From the NCBI GenBank assembly GCA_044347345.1, contig JBIKUX010000028.1, positions 1-28,495 of the forward strand: a DNA stretch of 28,495 bases, read 5' to 3'. This DNA is from Bdellovibrionota bacterium. Its GTDB lineage: Bacteria > Bdellovibrionota_C > UBA2361 > JBIKUX01. Below are positions 1 to 15,606 of the stretch, piece by piece (the stretch's first letter is position 1; each line of letters starts with the position of its first letter). The notes beneath the pieces were generated by a model that did no database searches, was not told the origin of the DNA, and worked only from the letters and a program-made list of their open reading frames with translations. A program made the position numbers and the translations under genes.

Positions 1-47
1 ACTTTGTTAGACTGAAGCCGATTCTTTACTGAATCGGCTTTTTTGTT
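1..47 (+). repeat. 47-bp exact direct repeat, copy 1 (element left end, att-adjacent)
   Basis: ACTTTGTTAGACTGAAGCCGATTCTTTACTGAATCGGCTTTTTTGTT is identical to 15755-15801. Confidence 0.95.
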
Positions 48-1580
48 TTTGCTTGTATCGCTTGCCAGTAAAGTGATTGCCTCGAACAAGCTATTTACTT
101 TTGGAGTTCGAACTACCCCTTTTTGCTTGTTATACAGGATTCCTTCGGGGAACACCAGCTTTTGTACTTGTTGCTTTGTTTCATACTCTGATGTAATCCA
201 AGCCCGGCTTAGGTTCTGCGCAATAGACATACATTTCTCCACAGTACTATTGAGGTTCGAACCAATCATTTGTGTTGCATCAGTTTCTTTGGATAATGCA
301 GCTATTTCCTCTCGAATCTTGCTGCTATGCTTTTGATAGATATCCTCACTTATCTGATCGGTAATAAACTTGTGTTCAATTTTTTCAAGCAAGGCTTTTT
401 TCTCTGCGATCTTCTTTTTTGTCAGCATGGCATCTCTGCTACTTTCAAATAAACGCTCCTTCAACTGCTTCATTATCGCATTGACGATTTTAGTTCTTTG
501 ATTGGGGTTATACTCAAATCCGCTGAGCAGCGTAACAAATAAAGAGTTCAAGTTCTTAGCACTCACGTTAACAGGATGCTTTCCTTCCTTAATCTTGTAA
601 TACCAGTTCCCTTTTGTCTTATATCCCGTAAAGGGCATCTTACTCACCTCATCTTTTGCAAATGTTTTTAGTGGCACTTCATCATGGCGGGAAACTTTTG
701 GTACGCCCGCAATAGGGTTATCGTTTAGGATATCTTGAACCCTCATAAAGGTTTTGATATCTATCAGCGCTGGGTGTTGACCTTTGATTAGCTTTCCCCC
801 TACAAGTTTTCCGGTTACATAGCCTGCATAAAAGGGATTGCTGAATACATGCCGAAAGCTTGTTTTGGTAATACGAACTCCTCTACGGCTAAGAAACTCT
901 ACTACTTCTTTAAACTGACACTTACCATCAGCTACCATCTGAAAACCTCGCTTTAAGTGTTTGCCTTCTTCGGTGATTACATACTCATGGAAGCAGGCTC
1001 TATGCTTGGGCTTTAGGTTTTTGTAACCCATCGGAGTAGCATAAGGCCAATAGCCTTTTAGCATTACCTCCCTAGTATTGATCGTAGTTCTGTCACTTTT
1101 TAATCGGTTGTCAAAATTGTTAAGCATGTGAAAGAAGTTCTCCTGCAACCTACCAATGGCCGTAGAAGTATCTATGTCCTGCGTAACTGATTTTACGGTT
1201 ATCCCTTGCTTGCTCAGTTCCTCACTTAAATGCGAAGCAGCAGCACCGCTTCGGGAGAAGCGGTCATAATTGAAAACTATGATGTAGGATATGTTCTTGT
1301 GCTTTTTTACGTATTCCAACATGCGTTGGAACTCTTTACGGCCATCTGTCTTTGCGGATTCATACGTACCCCCAAAATACTCTTTGATTGTGATACTGTG
1401 AGTGGCAGCATAGTTATTACAGTACTTACTTTGTACCTCAAGGCTTCCGTTGTTTTGCGCCTGCTCTTGGCTACTCACACGGGTGTAGATCACTCCGTCA
1501 CCACCGCGTTTTTTAGAGCTGTCCTGATAACGGTTGCGAGTTATTGTTTCAAGAGCTGTTTGAATGTTTGCCGTTTTCAT
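1..1580 (-). CDS. Large serine recombinase (resolvase + recombinase domains), open at the window edge
   Basis: Manual translation from ATG 1580: MKTANIQ...VIYTRVSSQEQ...FNYDRFSR...GYWPYATPMGYKN...FSNPFYAG...GQHPALID...KNKKADSVKNRLQSNK. It has the catalytic YxRVS and DRxxR motifs; 526 codons with no stop before base 1. Confidence 0.93.
   Translation of the reverse strand, partial: MKTANIQTALETITRNRYQDSSKKRGGDGVIYTRVSSQEQAQNNGSLEVQSKYCNNYAATHSITIKEYFGGTYESAKTDGRKEFQRMLEYVKKHKNISYIIVFNYDRFSRSGAAASHLSEELSKQGITVKSVTQDIDTSTAIGRLQENFFHMLNNFDNRLKSDRTTINTREVMLKGYWPYATPMGYKNLKPKHRACFHEYVITEEGKHLKRGFQMVADGKCQFKEVVEFLSRRGVRITKTSFRHVFSNPFYAGYVTGKLVGGKLIKGQHPALIDIKTFMRVQDILNDNPIAGVPKVSRHDEVPLKTFAKDEVSKMPFTGYKTKGNWYYKIKEGKHPVNVSAKNLNSLFVTLLSGFEYNPNQRTKIVNAIMKQLKERLFESSRDAMLTKKKIAEKKALLEKIEHKFITDQISEDIYQKHSSKIREEIAALSKETDATQMIGSNLNSTVEKCMSIAQNLSRAWITSEYETKQQVQKLVFPEGILYNKQKGVVRTPKVNSLFEAITLLASDTSKNKKADSVKNRLQSNK
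15..44 (+). terminator. Intrinsic terminator, probably for a tRNA upstream of the window
   Basis: 10-bp perfect stem AAGCCGATTC / GAATCGGCTT with a 6-nt loop, running into a T tract. Confidence 0.8.
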
Positions 1581-1740
1581 ACTTGTGTTCAGTTTGCAGG
1601 TAGATATCAATGATTAAGTTAGCGAATTGATCTATCTGTTCCTCCTCTGTTAAGAAGTTGATGGTAGTTTCTGCTTCGCTTTTCTTTTTTCGATCTTTTT
1701 GGGTTGCTTCTTTTACATAGGCCTTTCCATTTTGAGCCAT
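1549..1740 (-). CDS. Small hypothetical protein overlapping the recombinase start (candidate directionality/accessory factor)
   Basis: 63-aa ORF, co-oriented, overlaps the recombinase ATG by 32 nt. The role is inferred from position only. Confidence 0.55.
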   Translation of the reverse strand: MAQNGKAYVKEATQKDRKKKSEAETTINFLTEEEQIDQFANLIIDIYLQTEHKYENGKHSNSS

Positions 1741-1795
1741 CGTGATTTAAAGATTCACCACCCGGCCCCATGAGGGGATGCGAGTAAGTATCTTG

Positions 1796-2731
1796 TTAAT
1801 CCTTGGAGCCGGGCTTACCGGAAGTCATTATCTTATTGGTTCTATTAAAATTGATAGTTCGGTTATCTCGTGTACTAATGGTCACCTCTTCATAGTTTTT
1901 CATTCGAAGGATTCTTTTTACTTCTTCAGCTTGATCCGCAGTTATCGTCTGCTTGGTTTGAGTGTCAATGCGGACTATTTTTTCTGATTGTACAACAATG
2001 CGTAACTCTTTTACATTTTTTTTGCGAAGTTCTTTTAGGACAATGCGCTCTTCGTCTTCAAGCAAGTGCGGTATTACAATGTTTGCAAGCTCCTTGTTGT
2101 CAACAAATTCATCTAGTAGTGCCTTTATTGAGATATAGATATGTGGTCTTTCAACATCGGATACTAATTCAGTATGTTTGAAAAACTGTTCGCCTCTCTT
2201 TTCAATCACTTCCCCTTTCGGAAATATTAATATGCCTGCTTCCTTTCCAACGCGGACACACCATATAACAAGGTTTGATAAATAGCTAACATCAAACTTC
2301 AACCCGTATAAGAGCATCTTGTCTCCAAGAATGTACTCAACCTCTGCAAGCACCTGTTCATCCTCTGGCTCACTTATGCCTTTTGCTCTTTTTTCTTCAA
2401 GTTGCTTCTTTAATTCCAGCAGGTTCTTACTAGGTAGTTCATCAAAGTATGCATCTTTAAAAAAGTAATTGGTCACTTTTTCAGTGGAGGCAACTGGATA
2501 ACCCAAAGCCCGCAGATTATCCAGTATTCTTAACCATATAAGTTGCGAGAGGCTCACATTCAGTCCCCAGTCACCTTTTGGGATAAAGGGCAGTAACTTA
2601 TTCCTTCGCCAATAAGGCAAAAATTTATATAGTGATGACTCGCCATCGATGCTCATGAATTTTTCCAGCTCAAAAACAGGCTGGAAGTACTGTTGCTGGA
2701 ACATTTCCAGGGATAATTTTTTGGGAAGCAT
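1796..2731 (-). CDS. Hypothetical protein with MerR-like N-terminal HTH
   Basis: Long ORF; YWRRNKLLPF...LSQLIWLRILDNLRALG resembles a MerR winged HTH. Start moved from 2818 to ATG 2731 because a promoter-like motif lies between them. Confidence 0.65.
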   Translation of the reverse strand: MLPKKLSLEMFQQQYFQPVFELEKFMSIDGESSLYKFLPYWRRNKLLPFIPKGDWGLNVSLSQLIWLRILDNLRALGYPVASTEKVTNYFFKDAYFDELPSKNLLELKKQLEEKRAKGISEPEDEQVLAEVEYILGDKMLLYGLKFDVSYLSNLVIWCVRVGKEAGILIFPKGEVIEKRGEQFFKHTELVSDVERPHIYISIKALLDEFVDNKELANIVIPHLLEDEERIVLKELRKKNVKELRIVVQSEKIVRIDTQTKQTITADQAEEVKRILRMKNYEEVTISTRDNRTINFNRTNKIMTSGKPGSKD

Positions 2732-2775
2732 TTTGCAATTTGGGGTTTTATGTGTTATTTTGTCCAACTTCGATA

Positions 2776-2805
2776 CAAAATTAGGAGTTAAGGTGACATG
2801 GCAAA
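2776..2805 (-). promoter_or_regulatory. Bacteroidetes-type sigma promoter for the leftward core operon
   Basis: Minus strand TTTG (2805-2802), 18 nt, TAATTTTG (2783-2776), close to the TTTG...TAnnTTTG consensus. Confidence 0.5.
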
Positions 2806-2967
2806 AATTATCTTTCAACCCCTTAATCCAGCCGTTCGGTACGGTTCCTGTGCCTACTGCGGCAAGGTTTTTCCCAATTCCAGCTAACTATCCAAAGGAG
2901 ACTGCGAAGCAGGTTAAAGGATAGCCCATATTTGCGAGAACATCAATTTACAATAAAAACAACAACA

Positions 2968-3396
2968 ATGAAACGTAAAACAATCAACACTGCCAATGGC
3001 CCAGCAAAAACCTTTGCACTGGGCCGAGTCTGCCAGCATTGCGGGGAGCCAATTGCCGACCAGGAGCGAGCCTCAAAAACCCACTGCACCAGGTACCGAG
3101 ATGAGTTTGGGGTCATTCACGATTGCAAAAGGCGTAAACATCAACTCAAAACACAGTTGCAAGAGGATGTCCTACTCGATTTCTCAGCCAAACAAAGAGA
3201 GACGAAGCGACAAATTGAAAAAGTAATTGCAGCGCATGGCGATCTAGTCTCCACAGAAGTACTTATTGCGTACAATATAAATCCCGGAGAAAGTATCAGT
3301 TGGCACTATCACTCTGGCCTTCTCTACGCTGAAATGCTGGGATATAAAATAACTTCCAATCCAACACTCAATAATCACAAAATCGAAAAAATATGA
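2968..3396 (+). CDS. Hypothetical protein with Cys-rich zinc-binding motif
   Basis: CQHCGEPI...THC...HDC; ATG 2968 after an A-rich leader preferred over TTG 2932. Confidence 0.65.
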   Translation: MKRKTINTANGPAKTFALGRVCQHCGEPIADQERASKTHCTRYRDEFGVIHDCKRRKHQLKTQLQEDVLLDFSAKQRETKRQIEKVIAAHGDLVSTEVLIAYNINPGESISWHYHSGLLYAEMLGYKITSNPTLNNHKIEKI

Positions 3397-3725
3397 ACTT
3401 ATATGAATACATGGCCGTTGGCCGTAAGCTAAGTAAACAGGATAATCAAAGTAATCAAATTGCAGGCCTTATCGTAACAACTCTTGTTATTGGTGGTTGC
3501 TGGTATATCACCTACCGACTTGCCAACGAACGAGCCAAAAAAATATCATGGCTTAACCACAGTATGGATCAACTAAAAGATCAGCGTAACCAACTAGGTG
3601 AGGCCAATTCCCGGCTCACACAAGAAAATGCTTTGCAAAAGCAGAAAATCCACAACCTTGAGAGAGAGAAGCAATCGTTGGCAAGGCAGTTGAAAGAAAA
3701 ACAAAAACAAGAGCCCGAGGCCTAA
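3393..3725 (+). CDS. Single-TM coiled-coil protein
   Basis: ATGA overlap with the upstream gene; hydrophobic IAGLIVTTLVIGGCWYITY followed by a Q/E/K/L-rich heptad tail. Confidence 0.7.
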   Translation: MNLYEYMAVGRKLSKQDNQSNQIAGLIVTTLVIGGCWYITYRLANERAKKISWLNHSMDQLKDQRNQLGEANSRLTQENALQKQKIHNLEREKQSLARQLKEKQKQEPEA

Positions 3726-3743
3726 TTGCCGAATCAAAAGGGA

Positions 3744-3888
3744 GTTCCAAATGCGTAGATGCTGTTCCGGGACGGTTTTAAATAACCGTAGTACAACTGT
3801 TCCGGAACGGCGTTTACCGTCCTGGAACTTTCGTAGTCATTCTTACGAGTTCTAAAACTTTCTTGATAGTTCATGGGCGTTCTGGAAC
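3744..3888. repeat. Degenerate 10-bp-periodic repeat tract (consensus GTTCYGGAAC) with a hairpin
   Basis: GTTCCGGGAC 3764, GTTCCGGAAC 3799, GTCCTGGAAC 3819, GTTCTAAAAC 3849, GTTCATGGGC 3869, GTTCTGGAAC 3879; hairpin ACGGTT-N6-AACCGT at 3772-3789. Confidence 0.75.
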
Positions 3889-3930
3889 CTTTTCGCCAGG
3901 GCAAATTTTTAATCTTAAATTTATACTGTC

Positions 3931-4308
3931 ATGAAAAAAGTTAAGTATGGAATAGCGCTTTTTGCTATTGTTTTGGTAGTTACATTCGGTATTATTTCGA
4001 TTGGGAAAATCATTTTTATTAAGTACACTGGCGAAAAGGTAGTGGCTATTATTAGCCAGGTTCCATCATCATGTGATAGGTACAACCATATCAACGTTTT
4101 ATTTAAAGGCGAGGTCTATGAAGTAAGTATAAGCAAAGCCGATTGTCGAGAAGGTTTTTATAAAATAGGCCAAAAAGTAACATTGCTAAAGAATAAAAAA
4201 TATAAAGAGCTCGTATGGCCAGATAGTCAACCCGAATTGTTACCTATCATATTTGCAGGTGTTTTTGTTTTAGCATTTATCAGTATGAAAGGACAGATTA
4301 AAAAATAA
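3931..4308 (+). CDS. Two-TM membrane protein (DUF3592-like architecture), cargo
   Basis: N- and C-terminal TM helices around a small beta-rich domain (YKIGQKVTL); same layout as 5370-5759. Confidence 0.7.
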   Translation: MKKVKYGIALFAIVLVVTFGIISIGKIIFIKYTGEKVVAIISQVPSSCDRYNHINVLFKGEVYEVSISKADCREGFYKIGQKVTLLKNKKYKELVWPDSQPELLPIIFAGVFVLAFISMKGQIKK

Positions 4309-4332
4309 TTGTATCGTAACATTAATTCATTC

Positions 4333-4424
4333 TTACAGCTTCCCCAAAGATCTGCCATTTAGTTGTTACCCAGATTTTAAGCATTTAAACAATTACCATT
4401 ATTCCATGTCGATTGCGAAGTTTG
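4333..4424 (+). repeat. Right-end repeat copy 1 (partial)
   Basis: CAGCTTCCCCAAAGATCTGCCATTTAGTTG...TTATTCCATGTCGATTGCGAAGTTTG aligns with 15607-15701. Confidence 0.9.
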
Positions 4425-4507
4425 AAAACCAGGAAGATAAGCACATCGTAAAAACTTTTATTGATGCCCTCCTTACTAAACAACAATTACAACAACTTGC
4501 ACAATAA
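4421..4507 (+). pseudogene. 3' fragment of an XRE-type regulator gene
   Basis: Reads FENQEDKHIVKTFIDALLTKQQLQQLAQ*, like the C-termini of Bacteroidetes XRE repressors; no start codon. Confidence 0.45.
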
Positions 4508-4510
4508 AAT

Positions 4511-5008
4511 TTAGTTATAAACAAAGGGAATTTTTGACATCCGAATATTTATTTTGCCAGTTACATTTTTATAAAATCCAACGTATGGAAAATCCTGAGT
4601 GTTCACAAGAAAAGAATCTTTGCTATTGTTAATGATTAATGATAGCTTTATTGGCTCGCTAAACTTAGAACATGATATTCTTTGTTCAAAAAAGATAATT
4701 TGACTTTTTGTATTTCCTCGATAAACTTTAATTGTCAAATTTGCTCTTTCATCATTAGAATCGCTTACTAAACTAATATTGTCAAAAACTCGGCAGTTAT
4801 TAATAAATAACTCGGTTTTATCACCTTGAAATCCGCCTTGAAAATGAATTTCAAAGAGTTTATTCTCGTCTATACTAATTTTTTTGCAGGGCATGCAAGA
4901 AAATAAAAATATTATGCTTTGTAAGAAAAGTATTGTCAGCTTCCCCGAAGATCGGCCTGGCTTAAGTGCTTTGACAATCTGTGATTCTGTGAACTTTGAC
5001 TTTTTCAT
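4511..5008 (-). CDS. Chimeric ORF: IS3-type N-terminus + repeat-encoded linker + 5'-truncated lipoprotein
   Basis: MKKSKFTESQIVKALK (IS3 OrfA-like), then PGRSSGKL (antisense of repeat copy 2), then TILFLQSIIFLFSC lipobox and a soluble domain. Confidence 0.6.
   Translation of the reverse strand: MKKSKFTESQIVKALKPGRSSGKLTILFLQSIIFLFSCMPCKKISIDENKLFEIHFQGGFQGDKTELFINNCRVFDNISLVSDSNDERANLTIKVYRGNTKSQIIFFEQRISCSKFSEPIKLSLIINNSKDSFLVNTQDFPYVGFYKNVTGKINIRMSKIPFVYN
4931..4957 (+). repeat. Right-end repeat copy 2 (short)
   Basis: TATTGTCAGCTTCCCCGAAGATCGGCC. Confidence 0.9.
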
Positions 5009-5058
5009 ATTTACCATTTAAAGTTAGCAATTCCGCTAACTTCTAAATGGCACTTTTC
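4958..5058 (-). mobile_element. IS3-family left-end remnant
   Basis: First 16 codons MKKSKFTESQIVKALK plus the upstream hairpin AAGTTAGC-GGAATT-GCTAACTT; rest of the transposase absent. Confidence 0.65.
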
Positions 5059-5123
5059 ACCTCCTTGATAATAACATCATGTTCGGCAAGATTTAAATGA
5101 AAGTACTCGCTAATAATTCGTGC

Positions 5124-5263
5124 TATCAGCTTCCCCGAGGATTGACCATTTAGTTGTTAGCTAAATTTCAAGCATTTAAGTAATTGCCCTTATTCCATGT
5201 CGGTTACGAAGTTTGCAGTTTCAACCAAATCCTTCAATATTTCGTTCGAACTTAGTCCAGCAA
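5124..5263 (+). repeat. Right-end repeat copy 3 (near full length, includes recombinase-tail codons)
   Basis: Colinear with about 15610-15749; minus strand encodes AGLSSNEILKDLVETANFVTDME*. Confidence 0.93.
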
Positions 5264-5369
5264 TACCATGCCAAGCAAAACACTATTATTGCGGTTGGAA
5301 ATACTGCACTATAAATCCAATACATCATAAGATTTTTAAGGGTTGTTGGCCAATCAAAGCTAATTTAGC

Positions 5370-5759
5370 TCATGTTCCTGATTTCATTTTACGCCATTGG
5401 GAGATACTAATACCTATTCCTAATAACCCTAATGCAACAAAGGATAATAAATTCATCATTGCTGATTCATCTGGACGAAGTATTGTTTTTGAACCTTCTA
5501 AAAACTTCATATCAATTAACTCTCCTACGTGATGAGTCTCACAAAAATTTCCTCTCGTTGCTTTATCATAAATTTCTCCTTCGTAACTATACTTCACAAA
5601 ATATCTGACTTTTGTACCGATGGATGATTTTGGTAATTCCTCTATCTTCATTTTAACTATTATGCCATTCCTTTCAACATTCAGTGTTTCATAGTTTGAA
5701 ATAAATAAGATGATAGACCCAATAAAAAAAACTATCCCAGCCACAAACAAAAACTTCAT
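5370..5759 (-). CDS. Two-TM membrane protein (DUF3592-like architecture), cargo
   Basis: TM - beta domain (YFVKYSYEGEIY...HVGELIDMKF) - TM. Confidence 0.7.
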   Translation of the reverse strand: MKFLFVAGIVFFIGSIILFISNYETLNVERNGIIVKMKIEELPKSSIGTKVRYFVKYSYEGEIYDKATRGNFCETHHVGELIDMKFLEGSKTILRPDESAMMNLLSFVALGLLGIGISISQWRKMKSGT

Positions 5760-5805
5760 AATCGTTTAGAATTAAAATTTTATAAGAATTGGTTTTATGG
5801 GCGGG

Positions 5806-6276
5806 CTATTTATCCTCCCTTTTGAAACTATTTACCATTTGTCTGTATCTCGCAATTGCTATTTCAGTTATTGACTTAGTTAACCCTAGCTTGATGCAAC
5901 CTGATACGATAGGTTTCTTATAGCCAGCGTCTGCATAATTTATAGCTAAAACATCCTTAGAAAGAAGTCTGCCAACTGAATCAGCCTCCTTCACTGTTTG
6001 GTAGGAGATTACTTCAATATCTACAAACAAACCATTATCGCCGTTATTGATCATAAATGTTTTGAGACTGTCATTCGTTAATTCATTTATGCAGCCACAT
6101 ATTGCTGCAGCCTTATAACTCTTGACAAAGTCTGTCTTAGAAACATAATAATCAGATTTTTTGAAATTACGTGCGGACGTACAACTATATAAATAAGTTG
6201 AAGCAAATAGTACTATAATTAACACCATTTGATTAACAGCCATGACATTTTTTGTATTTATGATGGGGTTGATCAT
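5806..6276 (-). CDS. Hypothetical lipoprotein, cargo
   Basis: Hydrophobic stretch ending LYSC; internal CGC and C-terminal C. True start may be a downstream Met. Confidence 0.7.
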   Translation of the reverse strand: MINPIINTKNVMAVNQMVLIIVLFASTYLYSCTSARNFKKSDYYVSKTDFVKSYKAAAICGCINELTNDSLKTFMINNGDNGLFVDIEVISYQTVKEADSVGRLLSKDVLAINYADAGYKKPIVSGCIKLGLTKSITEIAIARYRQMVNSFKREDK

Positions 6277-6514
6277 ATGCTACAGCATTTAGAAATCTCA
6301 AACTAAAGATATCTTAATTTATCAAAAAATACCTCTTACTGCCTAGAAAATCCTCTGATGAAAACTCATATCGAGCAAAAGCGATTTCAAATTGCTTTGT
6401 GAAGAAAATTGCCCAGAAATGAGTAACTTATCAACATGAATACTACCGTAAGGGAGAAACCTAGATACAAAGTGATTTATTTTGCTGATTAAATGACAGT
6501 AACCAACTTTTAAT

Positions 6515-6964
6515 ATGAGTGTTAAAAGCTATTTTCTAAGTGTTTTTCTGACAGTAGGCGTACTGTCCAGCTGTTTTTCTCAACAGTTAGTAAAAAAACA
6601 AAGTGATGCAAAGTTTCTTACCGAACAAAAAGAACGCTTTATCAATATGCCGTTAAAAGTTCTTCTAAATGAGATTAAGCCAGCCATAAAATATGCGTAT
6701 GGTGAGGATGCTAAAGACCACGGGAGGCCTGCCTATTTCACGTTTAAATTTGTTACGAAACAACAAAACTATAGCCTTGTTGAGAAGGGAATTGCCCCTA
6801 TTGTAATTTATGTTTATGTAAAGGAAAAATGCATTGATTGGGGTAAATTCAAAAAACTAAAAAAAGAAACATTTACTTCTTGGACAACTGATGACTCTCA
6901 TTTCTATAATAATTTCACCGTAATCAATATAGATGTTTACGGTGAGGCTACTTTTGATGAATGA
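6515..6964 (+). CDS. Hypothetical secreted protein/lipoprotein, cargo
   Basis: Signal peptide MSVKSYFLSVFLTVGVLSSC. Confidence 0.7.
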   Translation: MSVKSYFLSVFLTVGVLSSCFSQQLVKKQSDAKFLTEQKERFINMPLKVLLNEIKPAIKYAYGEDAKDHGRPAYFTFKFVTKQQNYSLVEKGIAPIVIYVYVKEKCIDWGKFKKLKKETFTSWTTDDSHFYNNFTVINIDVYGEATFDE

Positions 6965-6997
6965 AAGATCTTTAACTCAATATCAAAATAGAACTCT

Positions 6998-7210
6998 TTA
7001 GGGTGATACAACCTCAATTACCCCCAGCTTATTCATTGTTATCAAGGTAAGCAGAACAATGATCAAGAAGTAATGCAAGGTGAGCATCCCTTTATCAACC
7101 TTAGGCTTGAAAATTGGATGATTCAAAATGGGAATGTCAATCCACAAGTTGATCAGTCGTAGAGTACTAAGCAATATGATTAAAACGGAAAAGACGGTTA
7201 ACAATGTCAT
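6998..7210 (-). CDS. 70-aa two-TM protein, copy A
   Basis: Near-identical paralog at 12024-12236 with frame kept and many synonymous changes. Confidence 0.7.
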   Translation of the reverse strand: MTLLTVFSVLIILLSTLRLINLWIDIPILNHPIFKPKVDKGMLTLHYFLIIVLLTLITMNKLGVIEVVSP

Positions 7211-7362
7211 ACGGTAATATTCAATCCAAATTTAACAACCCAATTTGAGAGTTAAGACTATTTCAAACCGACCAAACGTTATTTTAAGTAGAATTGTGCG
7301 TGTACTTGTCAAAAATGCGTAGCTATAAATAGCAAAACCTGAAGTTCAAAACCTTTAACTCT

Positions 7363-7764
7363 ATGAAATTACTACCAAGAATTGGCAGTCTACTAACGCT
7401 ATCATTCCTTTTCCTGTTATGCTCCACAAGTGTCAAGGCTCAGGAGGAAAAGCGTTCTGCAATAGCTGACTTCCACATCACTATCCAGAACACCCCAAAT
7501 GGTATTGCTCTCACAAGCTCAAAAGGGAGTGCTTGGGCAACCCTGGAGTTCACCCTTCCTTACGATAAGCCACAAACAATAAATGAGTATGGAATGGCTG
7601 ATCCTGCAAAAGGGCTGGAGAATGGGTCCTACCTGTTCACCATCACAAGGACCCATAGCGGCTTAAAGCTAAAAGGCTTACAGGGTACAGCTTGGATAGA
7701 CTTGGAATTCACGCTTCCCCCTAATAAAGCTCAAAGTATTGACCAGCTGGGAATGGCTATGTAG
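7363..7764 (+). CDS. Secreted protein with internal two-fold repeat, copy A
   Basis: Signal peptide ending VKA-Q; repeated unit GSAWATLEFTLP...INEYGM / GTAWIDLEFTLP...IDQLGM; paralog at 12375-12779. Confidence 0.8.
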   Translation: MKLLPRIGSLLTLSFLFLLCSTSVKAQEEKRSAIADFHITIQNTPNGIALTSSKGSAWATLEFTLPYDKPQTINEYGMADPAKGLENGSYLFTITRTHSGLKLKGLQGTAWIDLEFTLPPNKAQSIDQLGMAM

Positions 7765-7839
7765 TTCGTATTTTAGTTAAAAGCTCTAAATCATGAGATT
7801 CTTTGTCAGAACCACCTTACTCATTATTTTATAAAATTA

Positions 7840-8300
7840 TTGTCATCTAAATTGCGTTTTCGAATAATTATTAAATCAGTTTTTGTGCTATTTTTTCTTT
7901 TTTGTTTAATTCCAATAAAGTCATCATCGCAAAATTTTGATAGTTTACATGTGTATGCGGTTTATATGCATTCAATGTACATAATAAACATGGATAAAGA
8001 TTTAATAAAAAACGAAGTTGATCCGATAAAAATAGAGAATCAGCAAACAGTAAAAGAAATTTATTCTTTTTTAATTAACAATGTAAAAGGATCTTATTTA
8101 AAAAATATTAAAAGTAATTATCTTGATGTGCGACTTACTTTTGAATATTTTAAAAAAATAATAGAATTATTCAAACATTTGGTTTAACACACCTAAAAAC
8201 AATGTTTATAAATAATGAGCTTTATTCATATGATATTAAAAAGCTAAAGCAATTAGATAAATATATTACGGGCTTATCAACAAAATTAGGTGTAAGGTAA
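7840..8300 (+). pseudogene. Secreted protein gene frameshifted at an A7 run
   Basis: ORF stops at 8187; one extra A in 8152-8158 extends it to ...NNRIIQTFGLTHLKTMFINNELYSYDIKKLKQLDKYITGLSTKLGVR* at 8300. Confidence 0.6.
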
Positions 8301-8322
8301 GTGTCAGTTTCAATGATTATCG

Positions 8323-8398
8323 TATTGTCAGCTTCCCTAAAGATCGGCCATTTAGAATTTACTCAGGTTTTAAGCATTAAAGCAGTACTACCTTATTC
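8323..8398 (+). repeat. Right-end repeat copy 4 (partial)
   Basis: TATTGTCAGCTTCCCTAAAGATCGGCCATTTAG...TTAAGCATT...CTTATTC. Confidence 0.9.
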
Positions 8399-8482
8399 TT
8401 TCGTCAAAATGATATTTGTAGGGATATTAAAATCGGGTTCATCAGGGAGGCGTATACCATGTCTTTTCTATGCAGTGATTCG

Positions 8483-9271
8483 TCAATCGTTCGCTTCCCA
8501 GTCGCTATAAGTAAACCAACTCTCTTCCCCAGCTTTCATATAGGCTACAATTCTCTTTTTCGGCTTTTCCATCGTTTTTGTCACTTCATTGTAAACTAAA
8601 GTGTCTCCATTGTCATAAGATATTATTCCTTTTTTGTCACAACAGTCAAGCAATTTGACTTTGATGAAAAACTTTTCTTCATCCCTTGCTGTAATAACGC
8701 CTTTTGCTGTGCAAATGTCATTAACGTATTTGTTTTCCTGTTCCTTTGACACAAAGCCGTTTCGGTAATTGAAAACAACTGTGTCACCAATATTGTAGCT
8801 TGAATATTCATCCTGTTTCAGCTCCAAATCTCGCTTTTTTGCTTTTTCCCAAAAGTCTTGATAGTACTTAATTTGTTCTGTGAGTTTTATATCCTGTCCT
8901 GTTAAATAACGATAATAGCTGTCAAGTATGATGCCCGACATATCATCAGGATGATAAATGCCTCTTTCATTAAAGAACTTCGAAAGTCTTGAACCCTTCC
9001 ATAGTTCCCAGTTGTTTCTCATCCAAATTCCAAAGTTCAAATGCATTCGTGCGGAAAAGTGGTCTTCACTCATCGATTTAATTTTCACTTTACTGCTGTC
9101 CGCAAATATTTTGTCAAGCTGTTTAAGGCAATCATCCAAGTCAATAGGAATGTAAGTCGTGTCTTTTAAGGCTTTTGTATGGGTTTTATTATTGGAACTT
9201 GTCTGTCCATATGAAGGAGTAAGCTGTGTCGCTAAAAACGTTACTAAGAGTATTATAGTCTTATTTGTCAT
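8483..9271 (-). CDS. Secreted protein, DUF6794-like
   Basis: IPIDLDDCLKQLD...HLNFGIWMRNNWELW...GIYHPDDMSGIILDSY motif; signal peptide from MTNKTII (ATG 9271). Confidence 0.75.
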   Translation of the reverse strand: MTNKTIILLVTFLATQLTPSYGQTSSNNKTHTKALKDTTYIPIDLDDCLKQLDKIFADSSKVKIKSMSEDHFSARMHLNFGIWMRNNWELWKGSRLSKFFNERGIYHPDDMSGIILDSYYRYLTGQDIKLTEQIKYYQDFWEKAKKRDLELKQDEYSSYNIGDTVVFNYRNGFVSKEQENKYVNDICTAKGVITARDEEKFFIKVKLLDCCDKKGIISYDNGDTLVYNEVTKTMEKPKKRIVAYMKAGEESWFTYSDWEAND

Positions 9272-9412
9272 TGTGCTCAAGGTTTCTGGGCTTTGTGTTC
9301 GTAGCGGACACAGAATTCCCAAAGCTTGGGTTAAGATATACAGCTAAATTGAAAAATATATATTCATTCTATGTTTGTCCGTCTACATGATGCAAAACCC
9401 ATATTACCAGCC
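9272..9412 (-). other. Degenerate attC-like integron cassette recombination site
   Basis: Long imperfect inverted repeat: GGGCTTTG (9288) / CAAAACCC (9393) and GTAGCGGACA (9301) / TGTCCGTCTAC (9376) with one unpaired base; fills the gap between a stop and the next ATG. Confidence 0.6.
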
Positions 9413-9416
9413 CGTG

Positions 9417-10040
9417 TTATTTGGGATAACAAGCTGCTTCTGCTTCTTTAAGAGTTCTTCCTTTTCTGTCAAACAACAGCGTCAATTTTGTTTCAAAGGC
9501 CGGAACTGCAATTTCTCAACCCCAATCATTTGGAATTGATGGAATGTGCTCGCTAAGTCGCTTTTGAAACTGATACCAGCCTGGCGTGCTTTCAGTCAGC
9601 CGTAATGAGGCACTGTCACTGATAAAAATGTCCATGCAAATTTCATCTGTCGTGAAGCGGTCTTCTTTAAACCCAAATATAGTGTCGAAGTCTGCCCACC
9701 TATAAGATTTAACTCCACTATTCTCTGCCATGATAAAGCCGCGTTCAGTGTAGGAGAAAAAGCCCAAACTTTCCTGCTCCCTGTGAAACTGTTCAGCCAA
9801 TATCTTTTTGCCAAGTTTTGTGTCTTGTGTCACGAAAAGTTTTTTGGGATTGAGTAGGCGAGCCATTAAGAAAAGTCCAATACCGCCGAAAAAGGTGAGT
9901 GCAGCCCAGAAAGAGAATGAAGAAGACTTGCCTCTTGTATAAATAATGGCTACAACGAATAGAAAGTTCAAAACGATTAATCCAACTTGCTTTTGTTTGC
10001 TCTCCCAAATCACCCTCTTGTCATTATAGGTTGGTTGCAT
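9417..10040 (-). pseudogene. Membrane protein gene with a premature TGA at 9516-9518
   Basis: Frame continues past TGA: DWG*EIAVPAFETKLTLLFDRKGRTLKEAEAACYPK* to 9417; ATG 10040 directly follows the upstream stop. Confidence 0.65.
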
Positions 10041-10041
10041 G

Positions 10042-10674
10042 TTATGGGTTCTTAAATAATGCAAATAAGTCCTTTTTACTTTTACCCATCAAATCCTTTA
10101 CACCTTCTTTTTGAATTTTATCAAACTCGGTGTAAGATGGCAATGAGTCATAAAGTGTCTGTAGTAACTTATTAGCCTGTTTTGTGTCATCAAGATAAAT
10201 TAAGTTGATTGCTTTATTCGTCATCAATAATACAAAGTCTCTATTTGTTTTCTGCATTGTGTCCAGTACTTCGTTGCAAATTGACAACGACTTGTCGAAA
10301 TATTTTTTTGCAGAAATTGTATCGCCTAGTTGAAATGATAATATACCGCTTTGCAAATAAAGATCATGTGCATTTGGGCAGAGCTGTATCAATTTAATAT
10401 TTGTCTTAAGAGCTTTGTCAAACTGTTTTAGCTGATAATAGAACATCAATTTATTAGAATGCCCGAGAAAATAATTGCTATCTATCTGTGTGGCCTTCTC
10501 GAGAAGTGTAAGTGCCTTCTTTGCGCTATCGAAATTGTCAATATATGCAACTAGTGCCATCGCCTGATTGTTATACTGTACTGCAGCAGGATCAGGTTTC
10601 TGTCTCTCAGTAGTCTTACCACACGAGGCGAGTACTGTCAATATAAGTCCAACTAAAATCTTGGTGAGTGTCAT
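10042..10674 (-). CDS. TPR-repeat lipoprotein, cargo
   Basis: Lipobox LASC; TPR-like helices (ALTLLEKATQIDSNY, AKKYFDKSL). Confidence 0.8.
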   Translation of the reverse strand: MTLTKILVGLILTVLASCGKTTERQKPDPAAVQYNNQAMALVAYIDNFDSAKKALTLLEKATQIDSNYFLGHSNKLMFYYQLKQFDKALKTNIKLIQLCPNAHDLYLQSGILSFQLGDTISAKKYFDKSLSICNEVLDTMQKTNRDFVLLMTNKAINLIYLDDTKQANKLLQTLYDSLPSYTEFDKIQKEGVKDLMGKSKKDLFALFKNP

Positions 10675-10700
10675 TATTTTAAGCCAGAGTTATGTGTACG

Positions 10701-11261
10701 TTATTCGGTCGCCAAATTATAGCTATCAGTCGTCTTATCGTATTGTACTTTGATTAAATCACTTTTACTTACTTTCATTTTTCTATCAATTGTCAATAAG
10801 CCGTTGATATAAATATTACTTTCGTCACTTACATGCCTAGTGAGTTTTGTCGAAAGAAATTCAGTCAATGTAACTGCATCAGTAAGTCCTTTTATAAGTT
10901 CTATGATAATAATACCGCGTTTTGCAATGTCTCCAAAGAATGGTCGACCGCTGTTACACTTTATAACAGTAAGTGACTTTACATTTTTGTTTTCAGTAAA
11001 CTTTTTGGCTGTCACAGTAGAAAGTAGCACATTGTCTTTTGTTAAGTAAATTGGCTTGTCTGTTGAATTGAGTGCTCTTGAATTGATTGCAAGTGTGTCG
11101 CCGTTTGTCTTGACAAGATTACCACAGAAGTCTGTCCAACAGTCATTACACTCAACTACTCTGTCACCAATAACATACCTTTTAATATTTGATGTATCGA
11201 TATTTTGTCCAAACGTAAAAGTTGAAGCTAAAAGTATTGTTATGGTTAGAAGCTCTTTCAT
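10701..11261 (-). CDS. Hypothetical secreted protein, cargo
   Basis: Signal peptide MKELLTITILLASTFTFG-Q from ATG 11261. Confidence 0.7.
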   Translation of the reverse strand: MKELLTITILLASTFTFGQNIDTSNIKRYVIGDRVVECNDCWTDFCGNLVKTNGDTLAINSRALNSTDKPIYLTKDNVLLSTVTAKKFTENKNVKSLTVIKCNSGRPFFGDIAKRGIIIIELIKGLTDAVTLTEFLSTKLTRHVSDESNIYINGLLTIDRKMKVSKSDLIKVQYDKTTDSYNLATE

Positions 11262-11534
11262 AATAATGCACAACTTATTTATTGGTCCTACTTTCACATC
11301 CCTAGACAATCAATTCCTTGTGCATAGGTCTGTAATTTTTTCTTGTTGTAATTTATTATAAATCGTCGAATGGGCCTAGAAATTGTTGCAAATTTTGGAC
11401 TAATAGTGGACAAAAGCCCTTAGAAAGGTCTAATTAAAGCTTCTGTAATTTACTCAAAGAATATCCTTTACCTCATAGGTAGTCCACCAAATCTAATTAC
11501 ACATGGACCAAACATAGTTTCGGGGCTAAATTGT

Positions 11535-11891
11535 TTAACTATTTATTACTTCTTCATCTAATCGTCCTGCCAATACAGCTTTTTCAAGGTGTGTTATCGT
11601 TAATTCTTTTGTTTGTCGCCTCTGCTTTCCTGTAACCATTCTTATTATAGCACGAAGTATCGGTTCTCCTTCATCATCAAAGTACTCATCTATTTTAAAT
11701 TTACTAACATCTACTTTAAACTCATTCCCAAAAGCTATTAAAAACTTATCTGCGTCATCACCATTGATTTTTAAATCTTCTTTTATTCTCGTATTAATGC
11801 CAATTTCCTTTTCTTCAAATAAGGGTAATGTTATTCCCCATCCACTTCCCAATAAAAAGGACTTTAGCTTATTAAAAACCTCATTATTCAT
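11535..11891 (-). CDS. DUF1493-like (acyl-carrier-like) protein
   Basis: TRIKEDLKINGDDADKFLIAFGNEFKVDVSKF...YFDDEG...LTITHLEKAVLAGRL pattern. Confidence 0.7.
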   Translation of the reverse strand: MNNEVFNKLKSFLLGSGWGITLPLFEEKEIGINTRIKEDLKINGDDADKFLIAFGNEFKVDVSKFKIDEYFDDEGEPILRAIIRMVTGKQRRQTKELTITHLEKAVLAGRLDEEVINS

Positions 11892-12023
11892 TAATTATTT
11901 TTTAGTGAACCTGATGTCTTTTGTAATTGTTCCTAAAAGGTTTAAGCCTATTAAAATATTATACTTCCTCCAAATTTAGCCCAAATCTCCTTGAGTTTGT
12001 GGCAGCTATTCAAAAGGAATGTT

Positions 12024-12236
12024 TTAGGGTGATACAACCTCAATCACCCCCAGCTTATTCATTATTATCAAGGTAAGCAGAACAATGATCAAAAAGTAAT
12101 GCAAGGTGAGCATTCCTCTATCAACCTTAGGCTTGAAAATAGGATGATTCAATAAAGGAATATTAATCCACAAGTTGATCAGTCGTAGAGCACTAAGTAA
12201 TATGATTAGAACGGAAAAGACTGTTAGCAATGTCAT
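12024..12236 (-). CDS. 70-aa two-TM protein, copy B
   Basis: Paralog of 6998-7210. Confidence 0.7.
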   Translation of the reverse strand: MTLLTVFSVLIILLSALRLINLWINIPLLNHPIFKPKVDRGMLTLHYFLIIVLLTLIIMNKLGVIEVVSP

Positions 12237-12374
12237 ACAGTAATATTCAATCCAAATTTAATAACCCAATTCGAGAGTTAAGACTATTTCACACCGACCA
12301 AACGTTATTTCGAATAGAGGCATGCAAAAACTTGCCAGAAATTCGTAGCTTCAGAGAGCAAAACCTTTTATAGT

Positions 12375-12779
12375 ATGAACTTACTACCAAGAATTAGCAG
12401 CTTACTTTTGCTCTCATTCCTTTTCCTGTTAAGCACCACTAGTGTCAAGGCTCAGGAGGAAAAGCGCCCTGCAATTGCTGATTTTCACATCACTATCCAG
12501 AACACCCCAAATGGTATTGCTCTCACAAGCTCAAAAGGGAGTGCTTGGGTAACCTTGGAGTTCACCCTTCCTTACGATAAGCCACAAACGATAAATGAGT
12601 ATGGAATGGCTGATCCTGTGAAAGGGCTGGAGAATGGGTCTTATCTGTTCACCATCACTAGGACCCAAAGTGGCATAAAGCTTAAAGGTTTACAGGGTAC
12701 AGCCTGGATAGACTTGGGGTTCTCAATTCCTTCTAGCAAAGCTCAAAGTATTGACCAGCTGGGGATGATTATACACTAG
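12375..12779 (+). CDS. Secreted protein with internal two-fold repeat, copy B
   Basis: Paralog of 7363-7764. Confidence 0.8.
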   Translation: MNLLPRISSLLLLSFLFLLSTTSVKAQEEKRPAIADFHITIQNTPNGIALTSSKGSAWVTLEFTLPYDKPQTINEYGMADPVKGLENGSYLFTITRTQSGIKLKGLQGTAWIDLGFSIPSSKAQSIDQLGMIIH

Positions 12780-12883
12780 TTGAGACGAAAAATAATATGC
12801 CAAAAACCAAGTGTCTCAAAAAGTTCATCAAATATTAATATAATTGAAGGCAGCGTACAAATGGCATCAAAATTAATCACATT

Positions 12884-13552
12884 ATGACTAATCAAGAGTG
12901 GTTCCGAGGCCCTGAATGGGATAAAGAAACTCAGGATTTATTTGAAAATAAACTTAAAAAGTCAAGGGGGAGTTATAACAAATCTCAGTATATTTTAATC
13001 AAAGGAGGATATTTATTGCGCTCAAAAGACATAGTTAAAGAGTCTGAAGGGTGCAGATTAATGGGAAGGCTAATTAATGAATTTCCCAAAGAAACATCTC
13101 ATGTAATGTCTGCATATGAACAGTTGGGAGATTATTACTTTTCCAAAAGTGAATATGAAAAGGCAGAATTCAACTACCGAAGTAGTATATCATACTACAA
13201 GAATAATGGCAGAAGTGGCTCAAGTGGCATTGGAGACATTAAATTAGCGGAGACCATCATTAATGCAGGCAAATCTGATGTTTACCTTGAATTATATAAG
13301 CTTTTAACAGATCAATTCAGACAGACAAAAGGTCAGTTAATACTAAATGATGAGATATTTAGACATTATTCAGCTTTGGCAAAAATTTGTATTGCATTAG
13401 AAAAAAAAGAAGAAGCTAAAGAATATGCTCGAAAAGCATTACGATTAGCTGAAATTAAAGAGCCACAATTAGACAACTATCTGCAAATGGGCATTATTAA
13501 GGTTAGTAAAGACGAGTTAACAAAGTTGAATGACATTTTAAACGATCATTAA
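12884..13552 (+). CDS. Cytoplasmic TPR-like protein, cargo
   Basis: AYEQLGDYYFSKSEYEKAEFNYR and ALAKICIALEKKEEAKEYARKAL helices. Confidence 0.75.
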   Translation: MTNQEWFRGPEWDKETQDLFENKLKKSRGSYNKSQYILIKGGYLLRSKDIVKESEGCRLMGRLINEFPKETSHVMSAYEQLGDYYFSKSEYEKAEFNYRSSISYYKNNGRSGSSGIGDIKLAETIINAGKSDVYLELYKLLTDQFRQTKGQLILNDEIFRHYSALAKICIALEKKEEAKEYARKALRLAEIKEPQLDNYLQMGIIKVSKDELTKLNDILNDH

Positions 13553-13581
13553 TATACGACGAGAAGCATCTTTTTAGTATA

Positions 13582-13809
13582 ATGAATAAGCATAGAAAAA
13601 TATTACACATAACACTAATTGGCTTATGTTGTGCAACCTTTAGAAAATTAGAGTATGGTCCTTTAAAGATTACATTATTCATTCTTTTATCAAGTGTCGT
13701 AATTCAACAGTTCTTATACACTTTTAATTCCGAAACTTCTGACAAAAACCTAAAGCTTACGTCATCCATTAAAAATGAAGTTTTAAAGTCCATCCTAATA
13801 GTTTTTTAG
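13582..13809 (+). CDS. Small hydrophobic ORF, possibly a decayed membrane protein gene
   Basis: 75-aa ORF with hydrophobic segments just downstream of 13552. Confidence 0.35.
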   Translation: MNKHRKILHITLIGLCCATFRKLEYGPLKITLFILLSSVVIQQFLYTFNSETSDKNLKLTSSIKNEVLKSILIVF

Positions 13810-13868
13810 AGGTATTCTTAATTTATATTATCTACTTTTTATCAACGGAATTATTGAAAAAGTAGCAG

Positions 13869-13896
13869 TGTCAGCTTCCCCGTAGATCGGCCATTT
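13869..13896 (+). repeat. Right-end repeat copy 5 (short)
   Basis: TGTCAGCTTCCCCGTAGATCGGCCATTT. Confidence 0.9.
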
Positions 13897-14056
13897 GCTG
13901 TTCTTCATTTATACGGGTCTTTACTTTTGGGAGACTTTGGTTTTTTTGATAATTTTCCTGTTATAAATTTTGAAATAGTGCAAAGCTATTTCAGGACAAG
14001 ACACAGGAATCTTACAAAAAGCTTGAGAGACAATAAAACCAATATTAAACCTGAGA

Positions 14057-14803
14057 ATGTTACTGCCAAAGAGAAATAAAGTGATTAGGATACTATTTAT
14101 TTTTGTATTTCTATGTTTTATTTTTTCTTGTAACTTCTTTACCAATAAACAAGAAACGCAGGAAAATAATCAGGAAGCAAATTTATATTTGAATAAAGGA
14201 ACTTATCTTTTAGATGAAGATACTGAAACTCCTCGCTATGACTCTGCAATTATTTATTTAGAAAAAGCATCAGCTTTGGGCAGTTCTAATGCTGACAGAA
14301 TACTTGCTGAACAGTATTATTTTGGATATAAAATTAATGCTGATACAATTAAAGCAAAAGAGCATATAGAAAAAGCAATATGGAGAGATGATAGTTTAAT
14401 TTATGTTACGCTTGCGAAAATTAATTATTATAAAGGAGAGATTGATTCTTCTATTGAGTCCTTAAAAAAAGGAGATAGTAAGTACAGTAGTTATGAGCTA
14501 TCGCAATTGCTTATTTCAGGATATGCGTTTGGTCAACCTGACCCGATTTATAAGGATAAGATAAACATAAAAGAAGGATTAAAATATCTTATTAAAAGTG
14601 CAGAAAATGGTCATTTTGAGGCACAGCAAAGTTTATCATATTATTATTTAAAAGGGATAAATAACCTTTTAATAATAGATACTTCAAAAGCTAAATATTA
14701 TTACGAAAAAGCATTAAATAATTCAGCGGTTAAAGAAATTCCAGGTGCAATGGATGAATTACAGGAATTGAACAAGAGCTTCAATCGTACAGCTCAGAAC
14801 TAA
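14057..14803 (+). CDS. Sel1-like repeat lipoprotein, cargo
   Basis: Lipobox IFSC; YLEKASALGSSNADRILAEQYYFG and YLIKSAENGHFEAQQSLSYYYLKG repeats. Confidence 0.8.
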   Translation: MLLPKRNKVIRILFIFVFLCFIFSCNFFTNKQETQENNQEANLYLNKGTYLLDEDTETPRYDSAIIYLEKASALGSSNADRILAEQYYFGYKINADTIKAKEHIEKAIWRDDSLIYVTLAKINYYKGEIDSSIESLKKGDSKYSSYELSQLLISGYAFGQPDPIYKDKINIKEGLKYLIKSAENGHFEAQQSLSYYYLKGINNLLIIDTSKAKYYYEKALNNSAVKEIPGAMDELQELNKSFNRTAQN

Positions 14804-14960
14804 AGATTCTTCTTGTCCTGCGTCTTACATCTTTGATAAAACTCTCTGTAGACTTCTGTCTTTGATTTGTTTCCATAATCTTTCTTTTTTAGGTTAAAAA
14901 ATTGGGAAACACTATCTTAAATTACTAAATTAGTGGTACACTTTATGCTGAAAGTTTACA
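14793..14960 (-). mobile_element. IS left-end remnant (IS3/IS481-like transposase N-terminus)
   Basis: Minus strand starts TGTAAACTTTCAGCATAAAGTGTACCACT at 14960; ATG 14876 gives METNQRQKSTESFIKDVRRRTRRIFSSE and the similarity then stops. Confidence 0.6.
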
Positions 14961-15016
14961 ACAGTTGGTGCATTATTATCAATAATTATTCTACTAAAAA
15001 AATAATTTGTCAGGTT

Positions 15017-15580: not shown

Positions 15581-15606
15581 GTGGCTGTTTGTCATTCATT
15601 AATATC

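Follow-up and report, generated by a model that had tools for sequence, protein, structure and literature searches.

A 28,495-nt contig assigned to a Bdellovibrionota bacterium (JBIKUX010000028.1, contig C62 of the 68-contig, 2.53-Mb assembly G000, and in its entirety the window analyzed here) ends on its left side inside a gene for a large serine recombinase (LSR). We consider it likely that the window holds a tandem array of islands inserted by this enzyme in the 3′ end of a tRNA-Leu gene, with the recombinase open reading frame (ORF) spanning the attachment (att) site and its C-terminal tail depending on the state of the DNA. Comparison of homologous loci and proteins establishes that the enzymes of this clade occur naturally with two alternative C termini; that tRNA-Leu(CAG) forms the left flank of the window, and that the two isoforms differ in behavior, we infer.

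The recombinase gene and its attachment site

The recombinase ORF occupies 3..1580 on the minus strand and, counted from the ATG at 1580, runs for 526 codons to the end of the contig without meeting a stop, as an earlier note on this DNA had described (the ORF listing gives 3..1610 minus as open at the 3′ end). Because the window is the full contig, base 1 is a contig end and not a cut made in choosing the window. The enzyme is a large serine recombinase. In Pfam, its Resolvase domain (PF00239) scores E = 6.1e-26 and 91.7 bits against a cut-off of 23.3, and its Recombinase domain (PF07508) E = 1.5e-7 and 32.1 bits against 21.1. The TP901-1 integrase catalytic domain is matched at E = 8.8e-9, and Y32 T33 R34 V35 S36, with the nucleophile serine, are invariant in 83 aligned homologs; NCBIfam gave only sub-threshold matches, to XisF and CcrB. 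An AlphaFold2 model of the homolog P0012 (74% identical; mean predicted local distance difference test, pLDDT, of 84.3) aligns over 527–556 columns to the SPbeta, Bxb1, and PhiC31 integrases as solved at full length by cryo-EM (E from 7e-17 to 8e-13). Pfam gives no zinc-ribbon match; the P0012 model has a β region at 308–340 and long helices at 359–406 and 412–436. Neither the single-copy recombinase nor the 47-mer and tail described below occurs anywhere else in the 2.53-Mb assembly, and among the 39 window ORFs scanned with Pfam there is a single Resolvase-domain protein and no second recombinase.

The att site recurs along the window in copies that we call W, Y, X, and Z. W is the P arm at 1..47 (plus strand, the tRNA sense), with base 1 at half-site position 2, beside the inferred central GC; its minus strand encodes NKKADSVKNRLQSNK. 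A second exact copy of the P arm and its hairpin, Y, lies at 15755..15801 (plus) with no recombinase upstream, the two forming an exact 47-nt direct repeat (50 nt at 98%). A cytochrome-c-like ORF stops at 15809, 7 nt before Y, and the same cytochrome c–hairpin junction is present in metagenome run X2 (record 31; the contigs cited here from runs X1, X2, X14, and X17 are Logan contigs, built from short words). Tail Y (15676..15756, minus) has 26 codons and a stop, VPFAGLSSNEILMDLVEAANFATDMK*, and its P′ half-site is the 24 nt at 15730..15753 (minus), read outward from the center. Read as a whole, site Y (15801..15676, minus) is NKKADSVKNRLQSNK-VPFAGLSSNEILMDLVEAANFATDMK* in one frame, with its first 15 codons identical to the last 15 of the recombinase. 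The earlier note had placed 15756–15676 in the frame that joining the ends would give (526+26); because the 47-nt repeat is exact, that frame is directly visible at Y, both parts contiguous, with no end-joining needed.

Tail X (27865..27945, minus) also has 26 codons and a stop, with the same length and stop codon position as Y, and is bordered on its right by a B arm (27946..27979, plus) with a different hairpin and T run, unrelated to the recombinase end; tail and host-type arm together make a canonical attR (B|P′). Tail Z (5190..5270, minus) is a relic that keeps codons 4–26 and the stop, the first three codons, at the crossover region, having been lost or replaced. The earlier claim of two further tail copies that keep the frame and stop with synonymous substitutions therefore holds for the existence of both and for the length and stop of X, but Z lacks codons 1–3 and the synonymous excess is weak: Y and X have 12 identical codons, 6 synonymous (one TAA>TAG), and 9 non-synonymous, and Y and Z have 18 identical, 2 synonymous, and 7 non-synonymous. 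The coding evidence from Y, X, and Z within the window is accordingly weak. Tail Y and the corresponding tail in a sister element, L042, share 95.7% identity across 46 nt, and in metagenome contig L137 the left arm of X is joined to a different tail.

Among 7998 candidates scored, 2079 relatives have E ≤ 0.001, and we inspected the C termini of the best 120. In 102 of these, the conserved ...KNRLxSxxV continues into antisense tRNA peptides, with T-loop readings that include PRTGFEPA..., PKTGFEPARRF..., PRTGIEPA..., and QKRRFELP.... Two (P0012 and P0027) carry an element-type tail, PFAG(M/I)SS..., like the window tails (VPFAGxSS...), and the remaining 16 are truncated or different, P0074 and P0093 among them resembling diverged element tails. 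The junction valine is invariant (V527 in the 83-sequence alignment, A3), and all tRNA-type tails have F/I-E at codons 6–7 after it, as predicted by the fixed distance from the T loop to the acceptor end. In the clade P0022–P0036, one hairpin peptide leads variously into either of two tRNA readings or into an element tail, which places the exchange point at the Val codon and makes the hairpin part of the element. In all 10 homologous loci with sequence past the gene, a complete tRNA-Leu (CAG, GAG, or TAA, by ARAGORN) abuts the recombinase gene on the opposite strand and ends where the recombinase match ends, an intact tRNA being regenerated at the junction. L008 (P0002, 97% protein identity) has an ORF that reads ...QSNNVPRTGFEPAHLAAPPPEDGASTNFATWAGRQSYGK* through tRNA-Leu(CAG). 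Tails X, Y, and Z were not found by BLAST against loci L008–L019, whose distal island ends lie outside the DNA compared.

A degenerate P′-arm pattern run over metagenome contigs matched 120 stretches, of which about 100 are due to chance, and 17 were kept that have GTG (or a relic of it) with an upstream hairpin or recombinase end and/or an extended tail. Eight of the 17 are canonical attR sites, with a host hairpin, then GTG|CCC, then the tail (L024, L076, L042, L045, L064, L094, L127, and L137), and their host hairpins are unrelated. The contiguous attP form, in which the recombinase end runs into the tail, is present in L097, which encodes P0012 and has 50 codons of recombinase in frame upstream of the tail, and in L114, which is recombinase-like from the first base of its contig (37 codons). 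L031 and L072 are relic junctions that keep only ~75 nt of the recombinase end, and L096, a relic junction as well, is a deletion form. The homologs thus bear out two proposals of the earlier note, that the att site lies within the 3′ end of the recombinase gene and that host antisense-tRNA and element-encoded tails alternate there.

In some relatives, CCCTTTGCTGG forms a direct repeat ~75 nt apart, one copy in the recombinase 3′ end (...IPLLAG...) and the other in the P′ arm (L096 at 5788; L031 at about 40–100; L071 at 176; L072 at about 1–125). L096 and L071 resemble deletions between the two copies, and the order in L072 is tail, 75-nt recombinase end, another tail.

The geometry of the site follows the pattern described for large serine recombinases. 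The arms around GTG|CCC are inverted repeats, with P equal to P′ at 16 of 24 positions compared with 3–8 at eight slid centers. This dyad symmetry puts the central dinucleotide at the GC of GTG|CCC, corresponding to tRNA positions 71–72, and comparisons of the junctions confine the exchange to GTGCCC; crossover would take place at this GC, with base 1 directly beside it. The P′ arm (CCCTTTGCTGGACTGAGTTCGAAC) and the tRNA arm, or B′ (CCCAGGACTGGATTCGAACCAGCA), both have CTGGA at positions 8–12, and share TTCGAAC at 18–24 in P′ and 13–19 in the tRNA arm, that is, 5 bp further out in P′. For LI integrase, the zinc-ribbon-domain motif is described as lying at bp 16–24 in attP and at 11–19 in attB, 5 bp nearer the center (PMC3783163). 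A short dyad-symmetric site with the outer attB motif 5 bp inward is found here as well, in silico. The shared CTGGA and the shifted TTCGAAC indicate that tail codons 1–8 (VPFAGLSS) are an attP half-site that imitates the T-arm of the tRNA with wider spacing. The B arms are unrelated to one another, so recognition by this clade seems to depend mainly on the tRNA arm.

The outer P′ motif is the palindrome GTTCGAAC, which also occurs twice within the recombinase coding sequence, at 106–113 (...GSNL...) and 255–262 (...VVRT...), and further along the contig at 5244, 15730, and 27919; the genome has 22 copies, 5 of them in C62. The internal copies are kept in homologous loci (10 of 10 at the first place, 9 of 10 at the second), even though, in six of the genes concerned, TCG makes up just 10% of Ser codons and CGA just 17% of Arg codons. 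They may be putative internal binding sites.

The last codons of the recombinase also carry a structure on the opposite strand. In the tRNA sense, positions 16–24 pair with 31–39 in a 9-bp hairpin that is followed by a T run at 39–44. Across 15 recombinase ends (14 distinct), the nine pairs are formed in 99.2% of cells, compared with at most 48% in the best slid register, and compensation is seen at two pairs (C-G replaced by G-C in five sequences and by U-A in one). Six cells are U-G, which in the recombinase mRNA would be C-A mismatches. The covariation and the U-G cells indicate that the hairpin is maintained as a structure of the tRNA-sense strand, and the hairpin and T run are most simply read as a terminator that replaces the tRNA's own after insertion. 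The complement of the hairpin encodes a low-complexity linker, KKADSVKNRLQSNK, that is predicted to be disordered in the P0012 model (pLDDT <50 at 508–515 and 522–533).

The element-encoded tail and the two states of the gene

We compared 16 distinct tails, namely X, Y, Z, and 13 from metagenomes, omitting L094 and L137 (tails cut by contig ends) and L076 and L097 (identical to L024); with the metagenome tails included, a clear coding signal emerges. Codons 10–15 fall outside the 24-bp half-site. Within them, all 16 tails have I/L/V at codon 11, D/E at codon 14, and L/I/V/M at codon 15, and all four third bases occur at each of the three. Mean pairwise differences at codon positions 1, 2, and 3 are 0.425, 0.251, and 0.632, and column permutation attains the observed third-position excess in 61 of 5000 trials; since the 16 tails are interrelated, these statistics overstate their independence. 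A stop occurs within seven codons in none of the 16 tails in frame, as opposed to 14 in frame +1 and 11 in frame +2, and the same register is found in P0027, P0074, and P0093. In the AlphaFold2 model, residues 534–556 of P0012 are predicted to form a helix behind the disordered linker, with only moderate confidence (block means 57, 77, and 53). From these codon patterns, a short amphipathic helix from codon 10 onward is probably translated and selected. The claim that the tail is selected as protein is thereby supported beyond the half-site; the first eight codons are the P′ half-site. Selection on the translated tail implies that the attP-form gene must be expressed.

In the model that we propose, the LSR would insert islands one after another into the tRNA-Leu gene's 3′ end, leaving a lone surviving recombinase gene at the tRNA-proximal end of the array. 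In the integrated state, the recombinase ORF would continue into the antisense tRNA; in the attP configuration, whether an excised circle or a tandem junction, it would close in the element-encoded tail. The 3′ end of the frame would then serve several ends at once. Tail codons 1–8 would be the P′ half-site, copying the tRNA arm with TTCGAAC 5 bp outward in the geometry by which LSRs discriminate attP from attB, codons 10 onward would be kept as protein in a short amphipathic helix, and the last 15 recombinase codons would supply, on the opposite strand, the terminator hairpin and T run that replace the tRNA terminator. Integration would be the job of the attP form, and the integrated form would be the one present at excision.

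Serine integrases are valued in genome engineering for being simple and one-directional, and how direction is set without or beyond a separate factor is an active question. That the tail exchange acts as a switch of directionality or stability is plausible by analogy with the IntP and IntX forms of phage Mx8, but as a hypothesis it has in our estimation a low probability. We hold as similarly speculative the more specific idea that the helix is a state sensor, present only in the attP form and needed for integration or restricting the enzyme to it, with the tRNA T-loop read by the outer DNA-binding domain. If these ideas were true, insertion would swap the helix for a proline-rich antisense-tRNA peptide, altering activity, partner binding, or stability, and these enzymes would form a family of serine integrases directed at tRNA genes, with a built-in directionality or commitment switch that makes a separate factor unnecessary.

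Alternative readings and the proposed tandem array

The tail could instead be non-functional as protein, the ORF being merely stopless before the att site, with DNA constraint and shared ancestry conserving the tail and the two isoforms equivalent. The half-site accounts wholly for the first eight tail codons; tail length varies from 15 to >42 codons with no conservation past about codon 16; conservation among Y, Z, and the copy at 4336 extends ~70 nt beyond the stop codon, which points to non-coding constraint there too; Y and Z differ within the window by more non-synonymous than synonymous codons; and pLDDT is low to moderate over linker and tail. These points count against a selected tail, but codons 10–15, beyond the half-site, combine variable third positions with invariant second positions at the aliphatic codons and D/E in every tail, the frame is open in 16 of 16 tails compared with 2 and 5 of 16 in the other two frames, and the register is the same in homologs of 50–56% identity with different P′ arms (P0074 and P0093). 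On balance we regard a non-functional tail as somewhat unlikely.

Two further explanations concern the left end of the contig and the 47-nt repeat. The gene may not be split here at all, if the assembler broke at the 47-nt repeat or the molecule is circular or tandem, with the VPFAG tail lying to the left of base 1. The contig does begin exactly at a repeat whose other copy leads into the tail, complete P|P′ forms with a full recombinase are found in metagenomes (L097 and L114), and independent Logan contigs also end at or near base 1 (X1 record 1 and X2 record 24). In contrast, the 102 tRNA-joined homologs of 120 include the 97%-identical L008/P0002, the tRNA-Leu(CAG)–hairpin junction is present in run X14, a lake metagenome that contains 95% of the window's sampled words, and 47 nt is shorter than the usual final assembly word, so the repeat alone should presumably not break a contig; we judge an unsplit gene to be quite improbable. 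The 47-nt identity could also reflect a real crossover, by homologous recombination or over a long core, with the hairpin coming from the host target, and a perfect 47-nt direct repeat bounding the island 1..15801 is indeed unusual for serine recombinases. Yet the hairpin tracks the recombinase clade and not the target (P0022–P0036, with two tRNA tails and an attP tail), the eight canonical attR sites have unrelated host hairpins up to the same GTG|CCC, and the dyad symmetry is centered on GTG|CCC, all of which makes a 47-nt exchange very improbable.

Returning to insertion by the recombinase at a tRNA-Leu gene, the sites X, Y, and Z have the look of consecutive junctions between decayed islands arrayed in tandem. 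Y is attP-like and a non-canonical attR, since its left arm is the recombinase's own 47 nt with no host DNA; Y-like relic junctions are also seen in L031 and L072. The closest sister, L042, is ~7 kb long, is collinear with window positions 956–3894 at 96.9%, and has a Y-like tail in a canonical attR. The simplest reading would be that islands inserted in succession at the regenerated tRNA and that the older recombinase genes were later lost. This arrangement displaces two elements of the earlier note: a complete ORF would arise not only in the excised circle but also at tandem junctions (P|P′), and the picture of a single element is too simple for a window in which X, Y, and Z look like array junctions and Y is no canonical attR.

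Several points weigh against our reading, in addition to those already given for the tail. In canonical LSRs, attP-like and attL-like sites do not recombine. Under those rules, the P-type left arm of Y leaves its origin by re-insertion mechanistically unexplained. The central dinucleotide, as we place it, is the palindromic GC, which would not fix orientation and is unusual for LSRs. The DNA to the left of base 1 is not assembled in C62. One X14 contig joins the exact 3′ end of tRNA-Leu(CAG) to GGGCAC and the hairpin, which fits attL at base 1, but because the 47-mer is repeated and the contig was built from short words, it may equally belong to the copy on the cytochrome c side. The circle junction, base 1 joined to 15754, was not seen in the Logan contigs, which is uninformative given the repeat and the short words. 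One X17 contig (record 17) appears to extend ~699 nt past base 1.

The binning of the contig is a further point of this kind. The GC content of C62 is 36.7% compared with 40.2% for the genome, and in tetranucleotide usage it correlates with the remainder of the bin at 0.944, where the median for contigs of similar size is 0.983. Its closest recombinase relatives belong to metagenome-assembled genomes (MAGs) labeled Chitinophagaceae, and the five tRNA-Leu genes of G000 match the target arm poorly, at 7–21 of 30 positions. Composition, relatives, and the poor tRNA-Leu match together raise the possibility that C62 comes from another organism; it may be mis-binned, or the island may have moved recently. 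The P′-arm pattern matched G000 alone in searches of the 91 genomes of its order and the 124 representative genomes of its class, and the host flank of L008 has no counterpart in G000. The 39 tRNA genes of G000 do not include tRNA-Leu(CAG), and the target arm was not found there within five mismatches; because the binning is doubtful, this absence is weak evidence.

Related systems, cargo, and repeats

The recombinase resembles the LI/A118, Bxb1, PhiC31, and SPbeta integrases in its Resolvase and Recombinase domains, its short dyad att site, and the 5-bp shift of the outer motif. It differs from them in its tRNA target, in an attP that lies in its own ORF, and in the palindromic center that we infer for the site; relative to phage and island LSRs generally, it has no Pfam zinc-ribbon match and its B arms are mutually unrelated. 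An integrase ORF that spans attP is known from other systems; here the arrangement is found in a serine recombinase with an antisense-tRNA tail. In the Myxococcus phage Mx8, attP lies in the integrase coding sequence and integration gives int a new 3′ end, and the prophage form is reported to be active with changed specificity (PMC6070905). As with IntP and IntX of Mx8, attP here is within the integrase coding sequence and the product is altered on integration, but Mx8 Int is a tyrosine recombinase, whereas the present enzyme is a serine recombinase whose replacement tail comes from antisense tRNA. The SSV-type 'suicidal' archaeal integrases also have the recombination site within the integrase ORF (PMC7253208); they are tyrosine enzymes whose gene is split into two inactive parts, whereas only the last ~26 codons are exchanged here. 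The ORF-spanning-attP class is defined by tyrosine chemistry, so the present recombinase acts like the Mx8 and SSV cases without being a member.

The ssrA islands of Dehalococcoides provide a second comparison. As described in PMC3146451, they encode DsiB, a CcrB-like serine recombinase of ~540 residues, beside attL, insert in the T-loop region, and form tandem arrays in which many islands have no integrase. The window shares with them a serine recombinase by attL at a tRNA-like gene, the T-loop region, and the tandem arrays. Unlike the window, the ssrA islands target tmRNA, have 20-bp flanking repeats, and carry a second small serine recombinase, DsiA; the paired DsiB/DsiA module has no counterpart among the 39 scanned ORFs, in which there is one Resolvase protein, and an overlap of ORF and att site is not described for DsiB in the available portion of that paper (PMC3146451). 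As in the tyrosine-integrase islands of Islander and TIGER, the tRNA 3′ end is restored and islands accrete at one tRNA; here, by contrast, replacement covers only ~2–3 nt of the tRNA together with its terminator, without duplication of a long tRNA fragment.

According to the Islander paper, serine integrases are not known to use tRNA genes, a statement on which the present finding bears. Our literature searches turned up no account of this clade, and no serine integrase family reported to target tRNA-Leu or to overlap its own attP; catalog supplements (e.g., that of TIGER) may list such cases. The clade is widespread in the environment, as its many relatives indicate, and its target is a universal RNA gene. 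It combines a 5-bp-shifted copy of the target as attP arm, an antisense tRNA terminator in the coding sequence, and a C terminus changed on insertion. These traits would make it a natural setting in which to test the attP/attB discrimination model, the reprogramming of target sites, and control that depends on state.

A 63-aa ORF (1549..1740, minus) overlaps the recombinase start codon, and tblastn matches to it lie upstream of or beside the recombinase in 8 loci; the protein is a candidate regulator or directionality factor. Conserved core genes of unassigned function follow at 1796..3396 (340 aa minus, in 6 loci, and 154 aa plus, also in 6 loci). The 63-aa and 340-aa proteins gave no Pfam, PHROGs, or NCBIfam family. 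Cargo between 1 and 15800 consists of small proteins that are unassigned or have TPR, Sel1, DUF6794, or DUF1493 matches, and between Y and X there are ABC transporter, CobW, MerC, phosphoesterase, PhoX-like, and cytochrome c peroxidase genes. The population is variable here: X1 and X14 contigs depart from the window exactly at 15800, and an X17 contig joins 4387 to 15730, without most of 5–13.7 kb.

A module of ~90–140 nt is repeated through this cargo. The copy at 4336..4424 (minus) consists of the 3′ end of the tail and a conserved stretch ending ...GAAGCTGACAATAC, and others lie at 4919–4957, 5109–5182, 8311–8397, 13854–13896, and 15595–15668. Copies stand directly downstream of tails Y and Z, and others occur by themselves after several cargo genes of the plus strand. 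Rfam has no match for the module, three copies folded on both strands gave z scores of −1.63 to +0.85 relative to shuffles, and its 28-nt core is present in 0 of 138 other loci. The 4387–15730 joint in X17 suggests that module copies may mediate the gain and loss of cargo blocks. The window's one Rfam hit, an RT-11 RNA at 14202–14362, scores 26.5 bits against a gathering threshold of 143.5 (E = 0.065) and is most likely due to chance.

A 135-nt repeat, D5, lies at 19819–19953 (minus) and 27974–28108, the two copies being 86% identical. It starts with a P′-like half-site, tRNA-arm sequence with TTCG 5 bp further out; past the first ~15 nt, its likeness to tRNA-Leu does not rise above shuffles. 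By BLAST coordinates, D5 in L030 lies 3 nt from a copy of the recombinase P-arm hairpin, and the copy at 19953 is preceded by a hairpin that resembles the host arms of L042 and L064. As judged from these features, D5 may mark where an element of a second kind ends, or may be one more relic junction, in which case the "host" DNA that separates Y from X may itself belong to an island. Finally, two adjacent 300-nt blocks are duplicated at 91% identity ~5 kb apart (6981–7646 and 12007–12658); they span an ORF of 70 aa on the minus strand as well as the start of one of 133 aa on the plus strand, and resemble a duplicated small gene pair.

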